DNA of 32,000 nucleotides from Thermofilum adornatum (GTDB lineage: Archaea; Thermoproteota; Thermoprotei; Thermofilales; Thermofilaceae), in NCBI RefSeq assembly GCF_000446015.1, contig NC_022093.1, positions 1,290,001 through 1,322,000 on the forward strand, written 5' to 3'. The notes below the pieces were generated by a model that made no database searches, was not told the origin of the DNA, and saw only the letters and a program-made list of their open reading frames with translations. Of this stretch, positions 564 through 29,787 are shown piece by piece. Made by a program: the position numbers and the translations under genes. Position 1 is the first letter of the stretch. Every line of letters begins with the position of its first letter.

Positions 564-1631
564 ATGTCACAACAAAAAACAAGCCCAACGACCAAGACCC
601 TCGTTCTCGCCATCATCGCACTAATAATCGGCGCCATAATCGGCTACGGATTTGCAGCAACAACAATGGTTCCGTATTCCAAGTACGCCGAGCTAGAAGA
701 AAAACTAAAACAGGCGGGCGGAGGAGCCCCATCTGCGCCTGAATACACATTCTACTATGTCTCACACGGTGGACCCGCAGACCCATGGTGGGCCCCAGTC
801 ATAAAAGGGTCCCAGGACGCAGCCAAACTCTTAAACGTTAAAGTTGTCTACTCTGGCCCCGAAAAATTCAGCGTACAGGCACTCGTAGACCTCCTAAACA
901 GCGCTATTGCCGCTAGACCAAACGGGATAATATTAACCATCACAGATTACAACGCCCTAGACCAGCCTGCACGCTCAGCAATATCACAAGGCATACCCAT
1001 AATAGCTGTAAACGTCCCTGATCCAAGACCCGTTAACCAGAGGATACCCTACCTAAGCTACGTTGGACAAAACGAGTACGACGCAGGCTACTACTTGGCA
1101 AAATATTTAGTCGACAAGGGCTACAAGCCTAAACGCGTGGTTATAGGCATACACGAGGTTGGACACATAGGTCTAGAGACGAGAGCAAAAGGAATAACTG
1201 ATGCAATTACACAGGCATATCCAGGAACACCAGTTGAAAAGCTAGACATCACAACAGACCCGACCAAAGCTGCAGAGGCCTTCAAGAGCTATCTAACAGC
1301 ACACCCAGACACCGACGTAATTTTCACGCTGGGGCCGCTTGGCGCACACCCAGCCCTACAAGTTTTAAGGGAAATGAAGCTGACAGGAAAAGTACACCTC
1401 CTAACAGTAGACATTGACGACACAATTCTGAAGGCAATCGATGCCGGCGAGCTTGACGCTGCAGTCAGCCAACAGCCATACGCTCAGGGCTTCCTACCCG
1501 TAGTTTTCATGTATCTCTACGTCAAGTACGGCATCATCCCGCCTCCACAGGTTCCGACTGGTCCTACAGTCATTGACAAGGCTAGACTAGAAACTGTCAG
1601 GAAACAGATTGCTACCACTGGTGGAGCGTAA
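564..1631 (+). CDS. Sugar-type ABC transporter substrate-binding protein (periplasmic-binding-protein type I fold, ribose/xylose-like), N-terminal TM anchor
   Basis: It has an N-terminal hydrophobic anchor 'TLVLAIIALIIGAIIGYGF'. The block 'YYVSHGGPADPWWAPVIKGSQDAAK' and the overall pattern are typical of Peripla_BP_4-like binding proteins. It is the first gene of a binding protein/permease/ATPase operon. Confidence 0.8.
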   Translation: MSQQKTSPTTKTLVLAIIALIIGAIIGYGFAATTMVPYSKYAELEEKLKQAGGGAPSAPEYTFYYVSHGGPADPWWAPVIKGSQDAAKLLNVKVVYSGPEKFSVQALVDLLNSAIAARPNGIILTITDYNALDQPARSAISQGIPIIAVNVPDPRPVNQRIPYLSYVGQNEYDAGYYLAKYLVDKGYKPKRVVIGIHEVGHIGLETRAKGITDAITQAYPGTPVEKLDITTDPTKAAEAFKSYLTAHPDTDVIFTLGPLGAHPALQVLREMKLTGKVHLLTVDIDDTILKAIDAGELDAAVSQQPYAQGFLPVVFMYLYVKYGIIPPPQVPTGPTVIDKARLETVRKQIATTGGA

Positions 1632-1640
1632 AACTCATCA

Positions 1641-1657
1641 AAAAATAATATTTTTTT
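1641..1657 (+). promoter_or_regulatory. Intra-operon AT-rich element: A/T box plus T7 run between the binding-protein and permease genes
   Basis: 'AAAAATAATATTTTTTT' lies in the 39-nt spacer. The T7 run (1651-1657) could act as a partial terminator, and the AAAAATAATA box lies about 25 nt before ATG 1671. Confidence 0.3.
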
Positions 1658-1670
1658 CTAGGTGTAAACC

Positions 1671-2657
1671 ATGAGTATTGGTAAAAATGTTAAACCCCAC
1701 GGATTCATTGCTAGACATCCAGAAATAGGTGTCCTTGCCAGCTTTTTCTCAATAGCACTGATCTTTATAGTGAGGGTTCCAGACAAGTTCCTCACAGTTC
1801 CCACCCTTTACAGCATACTCACGCTTGCAGGAGAACTTGGAGTGGCAAGCATAGGTGTAGCTTTTCTGATGATAACAGGTGAATTTAACCTATCTATTAG
1901 CTCGGTCTATGCATTGGTACCAATGGGTGTAGTCCTCATGGTAAACCTGTGGGGCGTAGACATGCTGGCCGCATCTATTATCATGCTTCTCGTCGCTTAC
2001 GGTATAGGTGTCACCGTTGGGTATATCACTATTAAAACTGGGATCCCAAGCTTTATCAGTTCACTCGGCATGATGATGTTTCTCAGGGGCATACTCTTGG
2101 CCGTAACAGGAGGCTTCCCAGTGAGGCTTGAAAGAGACCACTGGCTAACATATGTCCTGAACGGGCCCATTGGAGATTTGGGTCTAAGGACAAGCGCCGT
2201 CTGGCTACTAGTTCTAACAGCCATATTCGCCTTTATCTTGGACTGGACACCCTACGGGAACTGGACATATGCAGTTGGCGCAAGTAGCAACACAGCACGC
2301 GAATTAGGCGTGTCGGTTTCCAAGGTTAAGCTGACGAATTTTGGCGTATCATCTCTGCTAGCCGGCCTCGCCGGACTAATGGCTCTCAGCCGTTTCAGGG
2401 TCGTTGACCCTACTCTGGGCCAGGGACTAGAGTTAGAGACCATTACTTCTGCTGTTCTCGGAGGCTGTCTCCTCACGGGAGGATATGGAAGCATCTCCGG
2501 AACTTTTCTGGGAGCCTTCCTAATAGCGATGACCCGTGTCGGACTCGTGCTGGCACAGGCGCCCGCCTACTGGTACAGCGCGTTTATTGGAATCATACTG
2601 ATAATTGCGACCGTAATAAACCTCTTCATAGTCAAGAAATACGTGACAAGCGGGTGA
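1671..2657 (+). CDS. ABC transporter permease (RbsC/AraH-type, BPD_transp_2 family)
   Basis: 328 aa and highly hydrophobic, with about 8-10 TM segments. The 'GEFNLSISSV' and 'TSAVLGGCLLTGGYGSISGTFLGA' blocks are typical of ribose-type permeases. It lies between the binding protein and ATPase genes. Confidence 0.85.
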   Translation: MSIGKNVKPHGFIARHPEIGVLASFFSIALIFIVRVPDKFLTVPTLYSILTLAGELGVASIGVAFLMITGEFNLSISSVYALVPMGVVLMVNLWGVDMLAASIIMLLVAYGIGVTVGYITIKTGIPSFISSLGMMMFLRGILLAVTGGFPVRLERDHWLTYVLNGPIGDLGLRTSAVWLLVLTAIFAFILDWTPYGNWTYAVGASSNTARELGVSVSKVKLTNFGVSSLLAGLAGLMALSRFRVVDPTLGQGLELETITSAVLGGCLLTGGYGSISGTFLGAFLIAMTRVGLVLAQAPAYWYSAFIGIILIIATVINLFIVKKYVTSG

Positions 2658-2661
2658 AAAA

Positions 2662-3423
2662 ATGGCGGGCAACATGCTCCTCGAAATGAAGGGCATAGTG
2701 AAAAGGTTTGGGCACGTTGAGGCGTTGCGTGGAGTCGACTTCCACGTGGAAAAGGCTGAAATTGTTGGACTCGTGGGCGACAACGGCGCCGGCAAATCCA
2801 CATTGGTAAAGATAATTGCAGGGGTATACCAGCCCGACGCTGGACAAATGTTCTTCGAGGGAGAACCAGTCGTCTTCAGGCACCCCAGCGAGGCCAGGGC
2901 TAGGGGAATAGAAATAGTCTACCAGCACCTAGCACTCATAGATCTCCTGGGCATAGATAGGAACATATTCCTGGGACGAGAGCCACTAAAAAAGATTGGG
3001 CCCTTCAAGGTTCTAGACAAAGAGAAAATGGAGAAGGAAGCAGGCAGAATACTCCAAGAGATAGGGCTCAAACGTATAAGGTCACCGCAAGAAAAGGTCG
3101 CAAAGTTAAGCGGAGGCGAGAGGCAAAGCGTAGCCATAGCTAGAGCGATGCACTTCAAAGCAAAACTACTTATACTAGACGAGCCTACAGCCGCCCTCTC
3201 GGTCCGCGAAACAAGGAAAGTCCTGGACCACGTACTAGACGTGAAGAAGCAGGGAGTAAGCGTCATACTGATCTCTCACAATATCTACCACGTCTACGAA
3301 GTTTCAGACAGGATAGTTGTGCTAGACCACGGGAGAAAAATACTCGACACGCCAAAAGAGGAAGTTACACCAGAAGAAGTAATAGAAGTAATAAGGACAG
3401 GGGGCGCAGTCATAGCTACCTAA
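2662..3423 (+). CDS. ABC transporter ATP-binding protein (single nucleotide-binding domain)
   Basis: Walker A 'GDNGAGKST', ABC signature 'LSGGERQ', Walker B 'LLILDEPT', and H-loop 'ISH'. It starts 4 nt after the permease stop. Confidence 0.9.
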   Translation: MAGNMLLEMKGIVKRFGHVEALRGVDFHVEKAEIVGLVGDNGAGKSTLVKIIAGVYQPDAGQMFFEGEPVVFRHPSEARARGIEIVYQHLALIDLLGIDRNIFLGREPLKKIGPFKVLDKEKMEKEAGRILQEIGLKRIRSPQEKVAKLSGGERQSVAIARAMHFKAKLLILDEPTAALSVRETRKVLDHVLDVKKQGVSVILISHNIYHVYEVSDRIVVLDHGRKILDTPKEEVTPEEVIEVIRTGGAVIAT

Positions 3424-3457: not shown

Positions 3458-3691
3458 CTACTTGTAAAGTACGCTGTACAAGAGATAGGCTACCAAGCTC
3501 TTATAGTCTGGAAACATAATTTTGAGATGCTTTGGAGCCGTTTCTCCCTCAAAATGAAGCTCAGCTAAACGGCCCATTACTGTCTCTTCTTTCTCTTCTT
3601 TTATCATCTCTAGATCGAAGATTTCAAGGACGAGTTTTCCTGTATCCTTGTCATAAGAAATAGTGTAGCCTACGGGAGCCTGTAGGGGCAT
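3458..3691 (-). CDS. Hypothetical small acidic protein (77 aa)
   Basis: ATG-initiated ORF 50 nt downstream of the MtmB-like gene on the same strand. No oligo-T run lies between them on the minus strand. I recognise no family. Confidence 0.45.
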   Translation of the reverse strand: MPLQAPVGYTISYDKDTGKLVLEIFDLEMIKEEKEETVMGRLAELHFEGETAPKHLKIMFPDYKSLVAYLLYSVLYK

Positions 3692-3741
3692 GAAAATATT
3701 ATGAGTCAGTATTATTTATTTTTTTTCTGACGTATTTATTT

Positions 3742-5094
3742 TTAGATGTATTGAGCGATTTCTCTAATAGTCTCATTTATTGTTTCGAGCCACTCTTTCC
3801 GCGGAGCTATTTTCTTGGCGTCGTAAAGCTCCCAGAAAGGCTTCCCTGGATCGGGGCTCACGATCCTGGCTTCATATCTCTTGTAGAGCTCCACAGCGAA
3901 GCCCCACGCCCTGTTAAAGCCTACATTTTCTTCGACCATTCTGTCAGCTAGGCCAGCCATAAACATGGCATCAACTCCGCCACCATTAGGCTGTGTACCG
4001 TTTTCCGGGACAGGTCCCAGAAGGTTTAACCCGGAAACAACCGCTACAAGCGTGTTCGCGGCTACTTCATAGAGATACTCCCTTGTCCCCCCTCCATTGG
4101 CCGGCCACACATCCCCAACGAGCGGGAGCCTCATATACCTGTTAGCCAGCCCCACGACCGACTCGACCCACATACACTCAATCGTAGAAGTAGCCTTCTT
4201 GACAATGTGGACGGGGTGGACAAGGAAATAGCTCGCATCATAGGCGACCATTGCAAGCAGAATCTCTGCCACGGAGACAATTGCCGAGCCAGCCGGCCCC
4301 CTCGCAAACCCGCCGACAACTGGATCCACGAGCGCCGCGCCCAGCACCCCTCTTAGACTGCCTACATATGCCTTCACTAGCTGGTGATAGTCAGTCTTCA
4401 ACTCGTTCAAGACCGGCAGGAGCTGTGCGTCGCCCCGGCGGAGCAAGCCCAAAGACATGGCTCCCAGGCTACCCACAGAACCTACGCTGCTCTCAGCCCC
4501 GAGTACATGCATACCCGGCCTCCCAGCCATCCTAAGCGCGCTCCTAAGCGACTCCATCTCCCTCAAGCCAGCCAACACCTCGCTTGGCGCACCACTACGA
4601 ACCATCTCACCCATCACGGTCTGCACACTTCCATGGTCGATACCGTCAACCCTCAGGACAAGAGCATATGAAGCGGCAGACTCGACAAAAAACTCTAGTG
4701 GGGTAGGGGTCCCAGCGAGGCCCCCAAACACGAATACCCTGTCACCAGGCTCCCTATAGCCAAGTTTCCTCGCGTCGCGGCCCCTTCCGACTACAATCCT
4801 ATTCCTTGCACTCTTCAGGGCCTCCCGCAACTCCTCCTCGCTGAACTTTGCGACACGAGACTCGTCCACTATGTAGAGCCCGGCCTCAACTGCAAGCGTG
4901 AAGCCTGCCTCGAAGACGGCCTTGCCGAGAGACTCGTCGGGCAGAGGGCTAGAAGGGTCAAAATGTACGCCATACTCTTTCTCTAGCTCTGCAACCCTCC
5001 TAGAGACATGCTCTAGGTCAAACCGCTTCTGCTCAACGTATTCCCCAGCCCTTGCCCTAAACTCTGCTATGAGCTGTCTAGCCACAAAAAACAA
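3742..5094 (-). CDS. MtmB-family (monomethylamine methyltransferase-like) corrinoid-dependent methyltransferase, pyrrolysine-free
   Basis: Uninterrupted 450-aa ORF. The blocks 'ELEKEYGVHFD', 'FEAGFTLAVEAGLYIVDESRVAKFSEEEL' and 'RMAGRPGMHVLGAESSVGS' resemble Methanosarcina MtmB as I recall it. TTG start 20 nt after the corrinoid gene stop, preceded by an SD-like GTGAT. There is no in-frame TAG. Confidence 0.8.
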   Translation of the reverse strand: MFFVARQLIAEFRARAGEYVEQKRFDLEHVSRRVAELEKEYGVHFDPSSPLPDESLGKAVFEAGFTLAVEAGLYIVDESRVAKFSEEELREALKSARNRIVVGRGRDARKLGYREPGDRVFVFGGLAGTPTPLEFFVESAASYALVLRVDGIDHGSVQTVMGEMVRSGAPSEVLAGLREMESLRSALRMAGRPGMHVLGAESSVGSVGSLGAMSLGLLRRGDAQLLPVLNELKTDYHQLVKAYVGSLRGVLGAALVDPVVGGFARGPAGSAIVSVAEILLAMVAYDASYFLVHPVHIVKKATSTIECMWVESVVGLANRYMRLPLVGDVWPANGGGTREYLYEVAANTLVAVVSGLNLLGPVPENGTQPNGGGVDAMFMAGLADRMVEENVGFNRAWGFAVELYKRYEARIVSPDPGKPFWELYDAKKIAPRKEWLETINETIREIAQYI

Positions 5095-5114
5095 AATATC
5101 ACGATGTACTTAAA

Positions 5115-5777
5115 TTATGTATGTTTCTCCAAGAGCCTTATACACTTCTCCACGGCGTCGACAGCGTCCCGGCCATAGGCGTCCGCGCCGATCTCCCTGG
5201 CAAACTCCTCCGTTACAGGCGCACCACCAACAATGACCTTCACCTTGTCCCTTAGGCCCGCAGACTTCAAGGCATCTATCACATTCCTCATCTCAAGCAT
5301 AGTAGTAGTCAAGAGCGCGCTCATACCCAAAATGTCCGGCCTATACTTCTTCACGGCCTCCACAAACCTCTCGGGAGACACGTCCACACCCAAGTCAACA
5401 ACCTCGAAGCCGTTCACCCTGAGCATCAAAGCCACAAGGTTCTTCCCAATGTCATGGATATCCCCACGAACAGTCCCAATAACAACGAGCCCCCTCCTAC
5501 CACCAGCATGCGTCGAAAGCCTCGGCAAAACATACCTCTCCATCAAAGAGTTAAAGAGCTCCCCTGCCTCCACGAGCTCAGGCAAAAAGTACTCCCCACG
5601 CTCAAACCTAGCCCCAACCTCGACCATCCCCCTACGCAGACCCTCCTCCACAAGCCTATAGACATCACAGCCCAGCCCCAGCGCCTCGGCAACCCCAGCC
5701 TCCGCACCCGCATAGTCAAGCTCCGCGACAGCCCTGCTAACTTTTTCAAAAACCCTTGAACAGGCGCCCTCACTCAT
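5115..5777 (-). CDS. Methyltransferase cognate corrinoid protein (B12-binding, MtmC/MtbC/MttC-like)
   Basis: Cobalamin-binding motifs DxHxxG ('GDIHDIGKN'), SxL ('MSALLTTT') and GG ('VIVGGAP'), with an N-terminal helical cap. The size of 220 aa is typical of methanogen-type corrinoid proteins. Confidence 0.85.
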   Translation of the reverse strand: MSEGACSRVFEKVSRAVAELDYAGAEAGVAEALGLGCDVYRLVEEGLRRGMVEVGARFERGEYFLPELVEAGELFNSLMERYVLPRLSTHAGGRRGLVVIGTVRGDIHDIGKNLVALMLRVNGFEVVDLGVDVSPERFVEAVKKYRPDILGMSALLTTTMLEMRNVIDALKSAGLRDKVKVIVGGAPVTEEFAREIGADAYGRDAVDAVEKCIRLLEKHT

Positions 5778-6078
5778 ATATCAACACGACCCTCTCAGGA
5801 ACAAACCTCTGCTCCTCACCCTCTTTCAAGAACCGGTAAACAACACGAGCACCACCCTCAAACTCGTCCACACGCAAAATCCCGACCCTTACACCCCTCT
5901 TAGCCAGCATCAACGCGAAGTCCTCGAAGTAGTCATAGAAGCCACAAGTCACACAAAAGCTACCAACAAACTCCGCGACAAACCCGTCGCCAAGCCACTC
6001 CACAACTTTGACCTGTGCCTCACTGCCATGCATCCTGTTAAACTCTTCACGTACAGATTCAACAATATTCCTAACCAT
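5770..6078 (-). CDS. Hypothetical small CxxC protein (102 aa), first gene of the corrinoid/MtmB-like operon
   Basis: Its stop overlaps the corrinoid gene start by 8 nt (ATGAGTGA). It has a single 'CVTC' motif in a segment that loosely resembles NifU-like domains; this resemblance is weak. A TATA-like AT-rich box lies about 25 nt upstream. Confidence 0.55.
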   Translation of the reverse strand: MVRNIVESVREEFNRMHGSEAQVKVVEWLGDGFVAEFVGSFCVTCGFYDYFEDFALMLAKRGVRVGILRVDEFEGGARVVYRFLKEGEEQRFVPERVVLIYE

Positions 6079-6129
6079 GAGAAAAAGAAGACAAAAAAGA
6101 AAAATATACTTTATGTGAAGCTATTTGCC
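6079..6129 (-). promoter_or_regulatory. Spacer carrying a T-rich terminator for the pilin gene and a TATA-like box for the corrinoid/MtmB-like operon
   Basis: The minus strand reads 'GGCAAATAGCTTCACATAAAGTATATTTTTCTTTTTTGTCTTCTTTTTCTC' and runs directly into ATG 6078. AAAGTATATTTTT is about 25 nt upstream. Confidence 0.35.
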
Positions 6130-10828: not shown

Positions 10829-11071
10829 ATGGAAATCGTAGAGATCGACGGATCAGGCCGTGTCTATATCCCAGCCAATGTAAGACGAAGGGTACCCTGG
10901 AGACGCTTTAAGATCGAGGTAGAAGCAGATCGGATAGTCTTGATTCCGGTTAAGCCGGCCGTGGACAAGTACTACGGGTTAGTTGCCCCTGCAAAGTCCA
11001 TGAGTCCAGAGGAGATTGATGATGCAGCTAAGACCGAGACGGAGAAGCTCTTCCGAAAAGATATACGTTGA
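10829..11071 (+). CDS. vapB: AbrB/SpoVT-domain antitoxin (VapB-type)
   Basis: The N-terminal swapped-hairpin motif 'DGSGRVYIPANVRRRV' is typical of AbrB/MazE-like antitoxins. It lies immediately upstream of, and overlaps, a PIN gene. Confidence 0.8.
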   Translation: MEIVEIDGSGRVYIPANVRRRVPWRRFKIEVEADRIVLIPVKPAVDKYYGLVAPAKSMSPEEIDDAAKTETEKLFRKDIR

Positions 11072-11414
11072 CATTAATGTTCTCTACTATTACTTGACAG
11101 CACACCCAGATTTTGGCGAACGTGCAAAGACTTATATTGCGAGGTGGAGCGGTAACCTGGTAACTTCATCGCTTAGTGCATGGATACTCTACGTTCTTAC
11201 GAGGCTCGAGAATATAGCATCAATTCTGGACGAGGTAGGTGTAGAGCTGGTGCCACTCACGGTAAGTGTCCTTAGCATAGCCGAGAAGCTTGAGAAACCA
11301 AGGGATTACGAGGACAGGATACACTTAGCAACAATGCTTGAGCTAGGCATAGACACGATAATCTCGAACGACAGGGACTTTGACGGTATTGCGGGGATCA
11401 AAAGGGTGTTTTAA
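11016..11414 (+). CDS. vapC: PIN-domain ribonuclease toxin (VapC)
   Basis: PIN acidic-residue blocks 'YVDINVL', 'EDRIHLATM' and 'ISNDRDF'. The only in-frame ATGs (11016/11019) give a 53-56 nt overlap with vapB, so the start is uncertain. Confidence 0.8.
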   Translation: MMMQLRPRRRSSSEKIYVDINVLYYYLTAHPDFGERAKTYIARWSGNLVTSSLSAWILYVLTRLENIASILDEVGVELVPLTVSVLSIAEKLEKPRDYEDRIHLATMLELGIDTIISNDRDFDGIAGIKRVF

Positions 11415-23075: not shown

Positions 23076-24629
23076 CTAACCACCCGTCGCCTTTTGGAGT
23101 GGTATTGCGGCAGTTTCTTTTTCTGTCTTTTCCTTGAGGAACTCTTCGATGACCGTATCTATGTTGGCGGTTTTACGCTCGACATATGAGATAAACGAAT
23201 TCAAGAAAAACCTCAGAGGTGCGTAGCGTAGCCCCTCGAAATAGAACTTTGACATGATATCCCTTGCCCAGTACAAGTCATGTTGCAGGCAGGCCTTCAT
23301 AACTTCGATGTGCTCACGGGTAATCGATTCGCGCCTAAACTTATCGATGTTCTTCAAGGCGCCCATTGGCACGAAAAACATTGGAACAATAAGGCTCCTA
23401 TAGCTCTTCAATTCGTCGATGAGCTCGGCTGTCTTTAAGACGTCGTCGGGAGTTTCTTCCGGCAGTCCAAGAATAACCGTAGCTGCGGGGATCACATGGT
23501 TGTCATGCATGATTGCAAAGGCATCTTTTACTATTTCGGGCCACTCCTCGGCCTTGTAAGGTGAAGCCTTTGCAGGCATAATCTTTTTAGCAAGGTTGAC
23601 GCTTCCAGTCTCTATTCCCACTTCTACGCCTAACATTTTCTGTCTTTCTGAAATCATTTCCATGAGCGTCGAGATTAGCTTATAGTTTTCCTCAGAATAC
23701 TTTATGGCCGAAAGACTCGCATGCGCCCAAGCAATCGTCCCAGGAATCTTTTTTAAAACCTCTTGATGCAGCTTGATTAAGGGCTCTGGGCGTGGTTTCA
23801 CCCCGTCAGCCCCATACAGCAAAACGTCCTCGCTGTGAAGCACCACATTTTTAATGCCAGCCTTCAGGTTAACTTCTATTTCCTGGAGAATCTTTTCTAT
23901 GGGAATAAATCTAAGCGGCCTGAGTGTCACGCTACAGAACCTGCATCCCCTTGGACAGCCACGCATTATCTCGACAAGCCCATTAACACTTGCACCTTTA
24001 ATTGTGGGTATCTCCTCGATTCTTGGGGCTTCTCGTGGAGATACATATACATATCTTGGTAGCTCTTCGCCCCTAAGAGCCTTTTCAACAAGCTCGACTA
24101 CAACCCTTTCACCCTCACCATCCACAACTGTGTCTACTCCCCACTTCTCCCACAAACCAAGCTCCCACAGCCACTGCCAAGCCGCTGGACCCCCGGCAAT
24201 AATTTTTACGCCCCTTTTCTTGGCTTCTCTAACAACGGGAGATTCCATAAGTCTTATGAAGCTCCTCCTGTTAACAGGCTCCTGGCCTGTTATAAGCCAC
24301 CACTCGCTACTCGGCGGGCCGTAGGCAAAGTAGTCGTGATGACTTAACAGCAATACTTTCATTGTGTCTAGATGCTTGCCTAGGTGGTCGGGGTCAACTA
24401 TGGCCGCGTTGTAGCCCGCGTCCTGTAGCTTGGCCTCTATTTTTCGAAGGCCATACGGCGCAATTAAGGGCCTACCCAGCTTGTCAACCTTCGGCTTGGG
24501 GCAACAAGCCCATAGCCACAACTGCTCTGGTACTCCTATAGCTGGACCGGTAGCCATGAAACCGATAAATTCTTTGCCGTGATGGTCGCTCATCATTGTT
24601 CTGTCCGTTGTTAAAACCACCTCGAACAT
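23076..24629 (-). CDS. Radical SAM enzyme with N-terminal B12-binding-like (flavodoxin-fold) domain
   Basis: 'CPRGCRFC' is a CX3CX2C motif. The N-terminal 'KVLLLSHHDY...VKIIAGGPAAWQ' pattern is typical of class-B-like rSAM N-domains. There are only about 6 Cys in total. Confidence 0.85.
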   Translation of the reverse strand: MFEVVLTTDRTMMSDHHGKEFIGFMATGPAIGVPEQLWLWACCPKPKVDKLGRPLIAPYGLRKIEAKLQDAGYNAAIVDPDHLGKHLDTMKVLLLSHHDYFAYGPPSSEWWLITGQEPVNRRSFIRLMESPVVREAKKRGVKIIAGGPAAWQWLWELGLWEKWGVDTVVDGEGERVVVELVEKALRGEELPRYVYVSPREAPRIEEIPTIKGASVNGLVEIMRGCPRGCRFCSVTLRPLRFIPIEKILQEIEVNLKAGIKNVVLHSEDVLLYGADGVKPRPEPLIKLHQEVLKKIPGTIAWAHASLSAIKYSEENYKLISTLMEMISERQKMLGVEVGIETGSVNLAKKIMPAKASPYKAEEWPEIVKDAFAIMHDNHVIPAATVILGLPEETPDDVLKTAELIDELKSYRSLIVPMFFVPMGALKNIDKFRRESITREHIEVMKACLQHDLYWARDIMSKFYFEGLRYAPLRFFLNSFISYVERKTANIDTVIEEFLKEKTEKETAAIPLQKATGG

Positions 24630-29430: not shown

Positions 29431-29787
29431 TCATTCTCGTAGTTCCACGCGTAAACCATACTTCTCTAAATGTTCAAAGTGGCGATCCTTCGTTACGAGC
29501 ACGAGATCATGGGCTATAGCTGTAGCCGCTAGTAGCAGGTCAGCATCAGGCACAAGTTCGCCCTTCCTCCTCAGCTTGGAGTATAGCTTGCAGTAGGCTA
29601 GAATCGTGCGGTTGTCGAGGTTCAACATTCCGTAGCTCTCTTCAAGTAGCGACTTCACGCTTTCCCTCTTCTCCTCAGGAACCCCGCGTAGAACCTCGAT
29701 AAGCGTGATAACTGAGAGCATTCCCTCCTCGAATACTCCTGTCTTCAAGTTGTCCACGAGCACACTGGTGTCGATCAGCCTTTTCAT
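29431..29787 (-). CDS. vapC: PIN-domain ribonuclease toxin (VapC)
   Basis: PIN blocks 'LIDTSVLV', 'ITLIEVL', 'DADLLLAATAI' and 'TKDRHF'. The ATG overlaps the upstream antitoxin stop (ATGA). Confidence 0.85.
   Translation of the reverse strand: MKRLIDTSVLVDNLKTGVFEEGMLSVITLIEVLRGVPEEKRESVKSLLEESYGMLNLDNRTILAYCKLYSKLRRKGELVPDADLLLAATAIAHDLVLVTKDRHFEHLEKYGLRVELRE

Follow-up and report, generated by a model that had tools for sequence, protein, structure and literature searches.

A 32,000-nucleotide stretch of the genome of Thermofilum adornatum 1910b (contig NC_022093.1, positions 1,290,001 to 1,322,000; the whole stretch is referred to as the window, and positions are given in its own numbering) carries on its minus strand the genes for a homologue of MtmB, the methanogen monomethylamine (MMA) methyltransferase, and for a neighbouring corrinoid protein. 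T. adornatum is a cultured, anaerobic hyperthermophile of hot springs that degrades cellulose and grows at 80 °C (PMC6965361). The organism is no methanogen, as an earlier prediction made from the DNA sequence alone had supposed from the surrounding genes, and the type III RuBisCO named there was confirmed by profile matching (642 bits versus a cutoff of 497). The four minus-strand open reading frames (ORFs) of that prediction were all found where it had placed them. Read in the direction of transcription, they encode a 102-residue CxxC protein (N186_07215, 5770..6078), a 220-residue B12-binding corrinoid protein (N186_07210, 5115..5777), the MtmB-family methyltransferase (N186_07205, 3742..5094, a 450-residue ORF opening at TTG 5094) and an acidic protein of 77 residues (ORF77, 3458..3691). 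RefSeq names the first three a hypothetical protein, a corrinoid protein and a monomethylamine:corrinoid methyltransferase, respectively.

The stop codon of the CxxC gene overlaps the start of the corrinoid gene by 8 nt (ATGAGTGA), and the two genes are presumably co-transcribed. This is the sole overlap in the operon, and the translational coupling that had been claimed for all four genes holds only here, the corrinoid and MtmB genes being separated by 20-29 nt and ORF77 lying downstream of the MtmB gene across an AT-rich gap of 50 nt. A TATA-like box, TATATTTTT (6100..6108, minus strand), was read by eye 30 nt upstream of the start codon of the CxxC gene and may be the promoter of a leaderless transcript of the operon that starts with this gene.

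The product of 3742-5094 matched the PF05369 (MtmB) profile as expected, with E=1.6e-68 and 232.1 bits against a cutoff of 25, over profile positions 9-447 of 450, and a phmmer search related it to the PDB entries 1L2Q and 1NTH (E=1e-51). An AlphaFold2 (AF2) model made with 12 homologues had a predicted local distance difference test (pLDDT) score of 92.5 and superposed on 1NTH/1L2Q with a template modelling (TM) score of 0.93 and a root-mean-square deviation of 1.8-1.9 Å over 445 columns, at 29% identity. Both its profile match and its fold make the protein a member of the MtmB family. In the phmmer alignment 'magrpgmhvLgaess' of the window protein is paired with 'magrpgmgvXgpets' of Methanosarcina barkeri MtmB, which sets Leu198 against pyrrolysine (Pyl) 202, and the same residue stood in the Pyl column of two MAFFT alignments of the family. 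Its codon is CTC (4501..4503, minus strand), and the ORF contains neither an internal stop nor an in-frame TAG; the replacement of pyrrolysine by leucine, which had been read from the sequence by eye, was thus borne out. In the AF2 model Leu198 falls within a predicted barrel β-strand (residues 196-199), in agreement with the published location of Pyl202 (PMC9842639).

The MtmB gene most likely starts at GTG 5085, and not at TTG 5094, to give a predicted protein of 447 residues, since the RefSeq protein and all close homologues match the shorter form. The sequence of N186_07205 is identical to WP_020963086.1. In the 447-residue numbering Leu198 becomes residue 195; the numbering of the 450-residue ORF is kept here.

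The 220-residue protein matched PF02607 at 57 bits and PF02310 at 108 bits and contains the sequences DIHDIG (106), SAL (153) and GG (184), which accord with the DxHxxG/SxL/GG motifs on which it had originally been called a cognate corrinoid protein. Its best relatives in the PDB were the Moorella cobalamin-binding protein 1Y80, MttC (7XCN) and MtmC (3EZX), with all of which its cobalt-ligand histidine aligns. Its score was near but under the cutoff of every substrate-specific model, with 197 bits against TIGR02370 (cutoff 215.3) and 204.9 bits against the best named NCBIfam model, which is MtgC-type (cutoff 370). On these predicted features it is a standard methyltransferase-cognate corrinoid protein. 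Its gene lies 0-80 nt from the MtmB gene in the window, in T. pendens, in Infirmifilum lucidum and in a JGI hot-spring metagenome contig (L084), and the two genes also adjoin each other in 9 loci of Methanomethylicia and Desulfurococcaceae and in most of ~55 bacterial loci, mostly with a 4-nt overlap. The corrinoid-MtmB pair is the conserved unit of the operon, and the four-gene system of the original prediction is reduced to a core of two genes, the CxxC protein being a generic archaeal protein and ORF77 restricted to the genus. Comparison of the window with L084 gave ratios of nonsynonymous to synonymous substitution (dN/dS) of 0.14 for the MtmB gene and 0.15 for the corrinoid gene, so both genes are under purifying selection.

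The nearest homologues of the MtmB-family protein all come from Thermofilaceae, from 95% identity in L084 and 73% in T. pendens Hrk5, through 64-65% in Infirmifilum, down to ~48% in metagenome-assembled genomes of Thermofilaceae/Thermofilales. The relatives that are at least 48% identical are all uncharacterised Thermofilaceae proteins, and as regards such close homologues the earlier statement that no substrate had been assigned still appears to stand. When 240 members of the family were clustered, 47 sequences formed a Thermofilaceae clade in which Leu fills the Pyl column of every member (47/47) and is preceded, two positions before it, by His (His196), within the signature 'GRPGMH[VLI]L[GA]xESS'. 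The next clade, from Methanomethylicia, Desulfurococcaceae, Baldrarchaeota and Odinarchaeota, is ~40% identical to the window protein and carries mainly Ile in the Pyl column. A large group of bacterial sequences, most of them from Anaerolineales, is ~36% identical; its Pyl column holds Leu or Met, and position -2 is Gly. Every Pyl-free clade is ~30% identical to the Pyl-containing MtmB proteins, and the window protein, judged by these alignments, appears to fall in a clade of its own, made up of Thermofilaceae proteins only, in which His196 and Leu198 do not vary. A profile search returned at least 1,215 MtmB-family clusters at E<=1e-30, and Pyl-free MtmB homologues are therefore a large family.

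Three full-length proteins from the Logan metagenomes (P0130, P0142 and P0211; 462-466 residues) are 55-57% identical to M. barkeri MtmB1, and in their printed sequences the Pyl column holds Gln or Cys ('GRPGMGLQGNETS', 'GRPGMGICGSETS'). These proteins may be near relatives of Pyl-MtmB that truly lack Pyl; alternatively, their genes may have been called under another genetic code.

The conservation of the clade bears directly on the idea that the gene is the remnant of a methanogen-type gene that has lost its function or is losing it, for which the non-methanogenic host and the lack of partner genes nearby might be cited. In the 47 members, 123 positions are invariant or near-invariant (at least 95% conservation), the ORF is intact, the B12 motifs of the corrinoid protein are kept, the AF2 model is confident and dN/dS is 0.14-0.15. 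A relic is effectively refuted by these conservation data.

Pyl-free MtmB homologues are not new and have been remarked on since 2010; in that work a Pyl-free MttB homologue was reported for Thermofilum, and Rother and Krzycki argued that a hydrophobic residue at the Pyl site implies a different chemistry (PMC2933860). Within the Pyl-free MtmB group a function has been demonstrated only for MtqB of Methanococcoides methylutens Q3c, published in March 2026. MtqB is encoded beside a corrinoid protein and transfers methyl groups to cob(I)alamin from tetramethylammonium and choline at 37 and 42 nmol/min/mg, and only weakly from MMA, at 11 nmol/min/mg (PMC13044021). Its clade is reported to branch near the Pyl-MtmB proteins and to have Methanococcoides, Methanosarcina and bacterial members (PMC13044021). 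For the family as a whole, the original assertion that no substrate is assigned to a non-Pyl MtmB homologue is thus outdated, and its claim to a novel phenomenon falls with the age and size of the family and with the name that RefSeq had already given the gene. The locus is a homology-annotated, lineage-specific member of a recognised family and not a new kind of system.

MtqB/MtqC and the window pair are alike in that a Pyl-free MtmB homologue of ~450-460 residues is encoded beside a corrinoid protein of ~216-220 residues. They differ in the physiology of the host and in the acceptor, which in M. methylutens is coenzyme M via MtbA, and the window protein lies in the Thermofilaceae-only His/Leu clade, which, going by the published description of MtqB, is probably separate from the clade of the latter. 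No Methanosarcinales protein was among the 95 nearest matches of the window protein, no protein named Methanococcoides was among the 120 family matches listed, and none of the retrieved family sequences had the size of MtqB (459 residues, 49,382 Da). The bacterial protein Ga0180325_111810 of 'Ca. Formimonas warabiya' strain DCMF is likewise a Pyl-free MtmB of a non-methanogen, ~30% identical to family members and implicated in a metabolism other than that of MMA; it is induced by dichloromethane, on which it was the most strongly induced protein, and it has no biochemical assignment (PMC9768040). The non-Pyl MttB superfamily (MtgB, MtcB, MtpB and MtyB) also has Pyl-free members in non-methanogens, which act on quaternary amines with a cognate corrinoid protein, but it is a different family (COG5598/PF06253) whose structural likeness to the window model amounts to a TM score of ~0.5-0.6. 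Closer to the window protein are the orthologues of T. pendens Hrk5 (WP_011752874.1) and Infirmifilum, at 73% and 64% identity, which share the gene pair, the His/Leu signature and a syntenic neighbourhood and are annotated by homology only.

The system of M. barkeri, MtmB1/MtmC, resembles that of the window in the PF05369 match, the TIM-barrel fold, the strand bearing GRPGM and a partner B12-binding corrinoid protein, although the methyltransferases are only 29-30% identical and the host of the window pair is no methanogen and has no MtbA, RamA or pyl genes nearby. The differences extend to the surroundings of residue 202. Glu205, Glu235 and His300 of M. barkeri MtmB1 are kept, as Glu201, Glu231 and His296 of the window protein; E229, E259, Q333, Y335 and M313 are replaced by L225, L255, D328, W330 and W309, all five of which are invariant in the 47 clade members, and G200 and G297 are replaced by His196 and His293. 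TIM-barrel active sites sit on or just after successive barrel strands, and in the secondary structure of the AF2 model the replaced and the kept pocket residues are found on or just past successive predicted strands. E229, E259, Q333 and Y335 are the residues that we take to surround Pyl in the crystal structure of M. barkeri MtmB, the list of Pyl contacts reportedly going back to Hao et al. (2002). If these contacts are right, the acidic, Pyl-activating surroundings would have given way to a hydrophobic/aromatic pocket with a cluster of histidines and a few carboxylates. The window protein is not a Pyl-dependent MMA methyltransferase, since neither UAG/Pyl nor the residues that neighbour it were found.

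It could be envisaged that the protein is nevertheless a true, Pyl-free monomethylamine methyltransferase, as its RefSeq name implies. MtqB does have a low activity with MMA, as given above, and Methanosuratincola, which belongs to the class that holds the nearest outgroup clade, can grow with MMA and H2 (PMC12244365). This growth can be credited only tentatively to the non-Pyl MtmB paralogues of Methanosuratincola, as some Methanomethylicia encode the Pyl machinery, including PylS, and their use of MMA need not involve the paralogues (PMC5424206). Moreover, in each of the three non-Pyl clades Leu stands where Pyl-MtmB has its acidic residues next to Pyl, the hydrophobic residue at the site argues for a different chemistry as Rother and Krzycki proposed, and Thermofilum is not known to use methylamines. 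We regard MMA as a very unlikely substrate.

Instead, the gene pair probably constitutes a Pyl-independent methyl-donor:corrinoid methyltransferase system whose donor is a compound other than MMA and whose acceptor is encoded elsewhere; the direction of transfer, the class of substrate and the external acceptor are what we infer. The 447-residue TIM barrel would act as the first methyltransferase (MT1), holding a methylated small molecule other than MMA in the centre of the barrel. There, Leu198, Leu225, Leu255, Trp309 and Trp330 would take the place of the side chain of Pyl and of the acidic residues that partner it, in a pocket that may also include the clade-invariant His196, His293 and His296 and the acids Asp328, Glu201 and Glu231. 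The methyl group would be passed to the Co(I) form of the 220-residue corrinoid protein encoded immediately upstream, and the resulting methyl-Co(III) protein would be unloaded by an acceptor enzyme encoded elsewhere in the genome, with any reductive reactivation likewise supplied from elsewhere. In a host that ferments peptides and polysaccharides, such a pair may serve to remove methyl caps from an imported organic compound or to scavenge methyl groups. A precedent is provided by MtqB, which together with its adjacent corrinoid protein is an active MT1 (PMC13044021). T. adornatum also uses B12 elsewhere, as a 517-residue radical-SAM protein with a B12-binding domain is encoded at 23076-24629 on the minus strand; its matches to TIGR04013/TIGR04014-type models are weak, and it is the second predicted cobalamin-dependent enzyme of the window.

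Several observations weigh against this assignment. Profile scans of the 32-kb window matched no acceptor-side methyltransferase (MT2) and no RamA-type activase, as had been stated from the sequence, and gave no RACo, Pyl gene, tRNA or Rfam match either. MT2 genes of the URO-D, MtrH or pterin-binding type and RamA/RACo genes were likewise absent within 8 kb of the pair in T. pendens, I. lucidum and L084, as were pyl genes, and the methyl-transfer pathway as seen is therefore incomplete. In seven other Thermofilaceae loci (L003 and L008-L013; e.g. L012:4016-9564) the MtmB homologue has no corrinoid gene within 8 kb. The transporters adjoining family members included none of the BCCT or OpuA type usual for quaternary amines. 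Finally, the reading of the active site is based on alignment and predicted secondary structure rather than on the coordinates of the model.

The surroundings of family members differ between lineages. The seven Thermofilaceae loci lacking a corrinoid gene have, tightly packed on one strand, an exporter-type protein of ~750 residues with ABC_membrane and ABC_tran domains, the MtmB homologue, a 197-residue SAF-like protein and a UxaA/GarD-family dehydratase. The 197-residue protein was considered as a cryptic corrinoid protein and rejected, as hhalign gave a probability of 0.1% and it has no DxHxxG motif. In Methanomethylicia and Desulfurococcaceae (L014-L024; e.g. L017:7327-15280) two divergent Pyl-free MtmB paralogues, of the Ile and the Asn type at the Pyl column, stand in tandem behind a single corrinoid gene, with a Bmp/PnrA-type ATP-binding cassette (ABC) importer nearby that is convergent in Methanomethylicia and divergent in Desulfurococcaceae. 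In the bacterial loci (L026-L083, mostly Anaerolineales) the pair is followed by a YkoEDC-like energy-coupling factor transporter, represented by a PF09819 S-component in 38 loci (at a median of 68 nt downstream), a fused double ATPase in 52 and CbiQ in 33, and a RACo/RamA-type activase occurs in 20; examples are L043:9411-10061, L076:10186-11913, L051:8983-9762 and L060:1074-3143. MT2 was absent from the 16 commonest neighbour clusters of these bacterial loci.

Within the proposed donor:corrinoid methyltransferase function, the best guess that analogy with MtqB and the non-Pyl MttB proteins offers for the substrate is a permanently charged N-methyl compound. The window protein may be a thermophilic functional analogue of MtqB that acts on a quaternary amine such as choline, tetramethylammonium or betaine. 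Quaternary amines are the substrates of MtqB and of all characterised non-Pyl MttB relatives (PMC13044021), and the predicted hydrophobic/aromatic pocket with its carboxylates (Trp309, Trp330, Tyr342, Asp328 and Glu201) is of a kind that would be typical of onium binding. However, the window protein lies in a clade of its own, ~30% identical to Pyl-MtmB, transporters of the BCCT or OpuA type are missing nearby, and Methanosuratincola, of the class with the nearest outgroup clade, does not use betaine (PMC12244365). A quaternary amine is accordingly retained as a tentative proposal, somewhat doubtful but the one that we would give the most weight among the donors named.

Gene context offers a different best guess, a methylated sugar or cyclitol. 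A CUT2-type ABC importer, consisting of a binding protein, a permease and an ATPase, is encoded at 564-3423 on the plus strand, convergent with the operon, and its binding protein (564-1631) has as its best NCBIfam match the rhizopine (3-O-methyl-scyllo-inosamine) binding protein, at 216 bits. The donor could thus be an O-methylated carbohydrate, uronic acid or cyclitol, for instance 4-O-methylglucuronate from xylan or an O-methyl-inositol, brought in by this sugar-type transporter, with the invariant His and Asp residues providing acid or metal activation of the ether. Such a donor would suit a host that breaks down cellulose and other polysaccharides (PMC6965361). In the seven Thermofilaceae loci described above, the MtmB homologue stands in a tight string with a split UxaA/GarD-type sugar-acid dehydratase, and His196, His293, His296 and Asp328 are invariant in the clade. 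Against these points, the match of the binding protein is far under its cutoff (216 versus 420 bits), the importer is convergent with the operon and hence not co-transcribed with it, and the adjacency of the two is limited to one genus and may be inherited synteny. We know of no corrinoid enzyme that cleaves alkyl (non-aryl) sugar methyl ethers, in which the leaving group is poor. The binding protein is 90% identical to its T. pendens orthologue, versus 73% for the MtmB-family protein. A functional link between the operon and the importer is no more than a lead, and a methylated carbohydrate is on balance an unlikely donor, behind a quaternary amine.

A bolder form of the same idea is that the His196/Leu198 clade is a new class of corrinoid MT1, which would take its methyl group from an uncharged methyl ether of carbohydrate origin, such as 4-O-methylglucuronate or an O-methyl-cyclitol, or from some other donor that is not an amine, with a His/Asp site, possibly containing a metal, standing in for pyrrolysine. 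We give this just an outside chance. If true, a polysaccharide-fermenting hyperthermophile without methanogenesis or acetogenesis could strip methyl caps, or harvest methyl groups for methionine and S-adenosylmethionine, with a methyl acceptor enzyme that is unlinked to the pair.

The lack of linked acceptor genes could also be taken to mean that the window protein itself has an acceptor-side or biosynthetic role, transferring methyl from a methyl-corrinoid to a metabolite or cofactor, or that it carries out both half-reactions in the manner of MtsA. Across 84 loci from several phyla, in which transporters and RACo are the common neighbours, the pair has no linked MT2 gene, and the two divergent MtmB paralogues that accompany each corrinoid gene in Methanomethylicia could be donor- and acceptor-side enzymes. 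This role is without precedent in the MtmB fold family, however; the Thermofilum locus has one paralogue only, and MT2 is often unlinked in known systems, as with MtqA/MtbA in M. methylutens (PMC13044021). We therefore consider it improbable, though less so than methyl transfer from MMA.

Of the more than 1,200 clusters of Pyl-free MtmB homologues, only one has a characterised member as of 2026. The Thermofilum system is compact, consisting of two genes in cultured and genome-sequenced hyperthermophiles (T. adornatum 1910b, T. pendens Hrk5 and Infirmifilum spp.), and its proteins should be stable and easy to assay. Identification of the methyl donor would widen the substrate range of corrinoid methyltransferases, show how pyrrolysine chemistry can be replaced and explain why fermentative Thermoproteota have retained an enzyme of the 'methanogen type'.

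The first gene of the operon encodes a small protein with a single CVTC motif, which matched no Pfam or NCBIfam family. Its relatives form ~170-314 clusters across archaea, with the motif G.FC.TCG.YDYF.D in which the second Cys is invariant. The AF2 model (pLDDT 91.7) has the topology α-β-β-CxxC-α-β-β and gave no significant fold match in the PDB, the best Foldseek hit (E 0.013) being to unrelated folds; a family profile searched against PDB sequences returned nothing significant either. Apart from the window, L084 and T. pendens, no locus has the CxxC gene next to the corrinoid gene; it lies 3 kb from the pair in I. lucidum and 7 kb from it in the locus L004, and elsewhere its relatives adjoin unrelated genes. 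In I. lucidum (L002:1661-7247) an AAA_14/DUF4143 gene and a HepT/nucleotidyltransferase toxin-antitoxin pair stand between the CxxC and corrinoid genes, and genes for a resolvase and a Cas12f1-like TnpB are found a short way upstream of the CxxC gene; the linkage is therefore dispensable, as the insertion separates the two genes in this species. The dN/dS of the CxxC gene between the window and L084 is 0.25. Thus the CxxC protein belongs to an archaea-wide family of small proteins without a Pfam model, is linked to the operon in Thermofilum and Infirmifilum only and is not a general component of MtmB systems. Elsewhere the domain is fused to desulfoferrodoxin, CBS, SfsA, nucleotidyltransferase and GNAT domains, and these fusions, including that to desulfoferrodoxin (superoxide reductase), hint at a generic redox or metal role. 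Three assignments of the CxxC protein were rejected: as a thioredoxin, since its topology does not have the thioredoxin order and no fold matched; as an Nfu-type Fe-S carrier, the 'NifU C-terminal' label in UniRef notwithstanding, since PF01106 hit only 2/61 members at E=0.13; and as a dedicated partner of the pair, since its relatives occur in unrelated contexts.

ORF77 likewise matched no Pfam or NCBIfam family, and tblastn found no match to it in the 83 other loci. Its counterpart in L084 has 74 residues, lies on the same strand and differs by an in-frame 9-nt indel, with a dN/dS of 0.26 that derives from just 6 substitutions. There is a weak likeness to a 66-residue gene of T. pendens (L001:9351-9551) in the same intergenic gap and on the opposite strand, 16 of 2000 shuffled sequences reaching its score; the two share the patterns ...T.KLV[IL]E.F... 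and ...DYKS[FL]..., and a local inversion is a possible explanation of the difference in strand. ORF77 may be a real, genus-specific small gene; its membership of the operon is unproven, and nothing ties it to methyl transfer.

In base composition the core genes stand slightly apart. The GC contents counted by hand for three 60-nt lines of the operon in the original prediction were exact (0.617, 0.667 and 0.500), and the MtmB and corrinoid genes as a whole have GC contents of 0.557 and 0.554, versus a mean of 0.487 +/- 0.033 for the genes of the window, and a third-position GC content (GC3) of 0.61-0.64 versus 0.534 +/- 0.06. The excess is modest, at ~2 standard deviations in GC and less than 2 in GC3, and the whole neighbourhood is syntenic with T. 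pendens; recent horizontal transfer is therefore not indicated, and the hint of it in the GC content was rejected.

In the published Thermofilum studies consulted, no mention was found of the operon, of corrinoids or of methylamines. The remainder of the window encodes peptidases, ABC transporters and two radical-SAM proteins, one of them the B12-binding protein described above; these two were considered as candidates for PylB and rejected, being an AmmeMemoRadiSam-type enzyme and a B12-binding radical-SAM protein. Two PIN/VapC-type toxin genes are also present, at 11016-11414 on the plus strand and at 29431-29787 on the minus strand.

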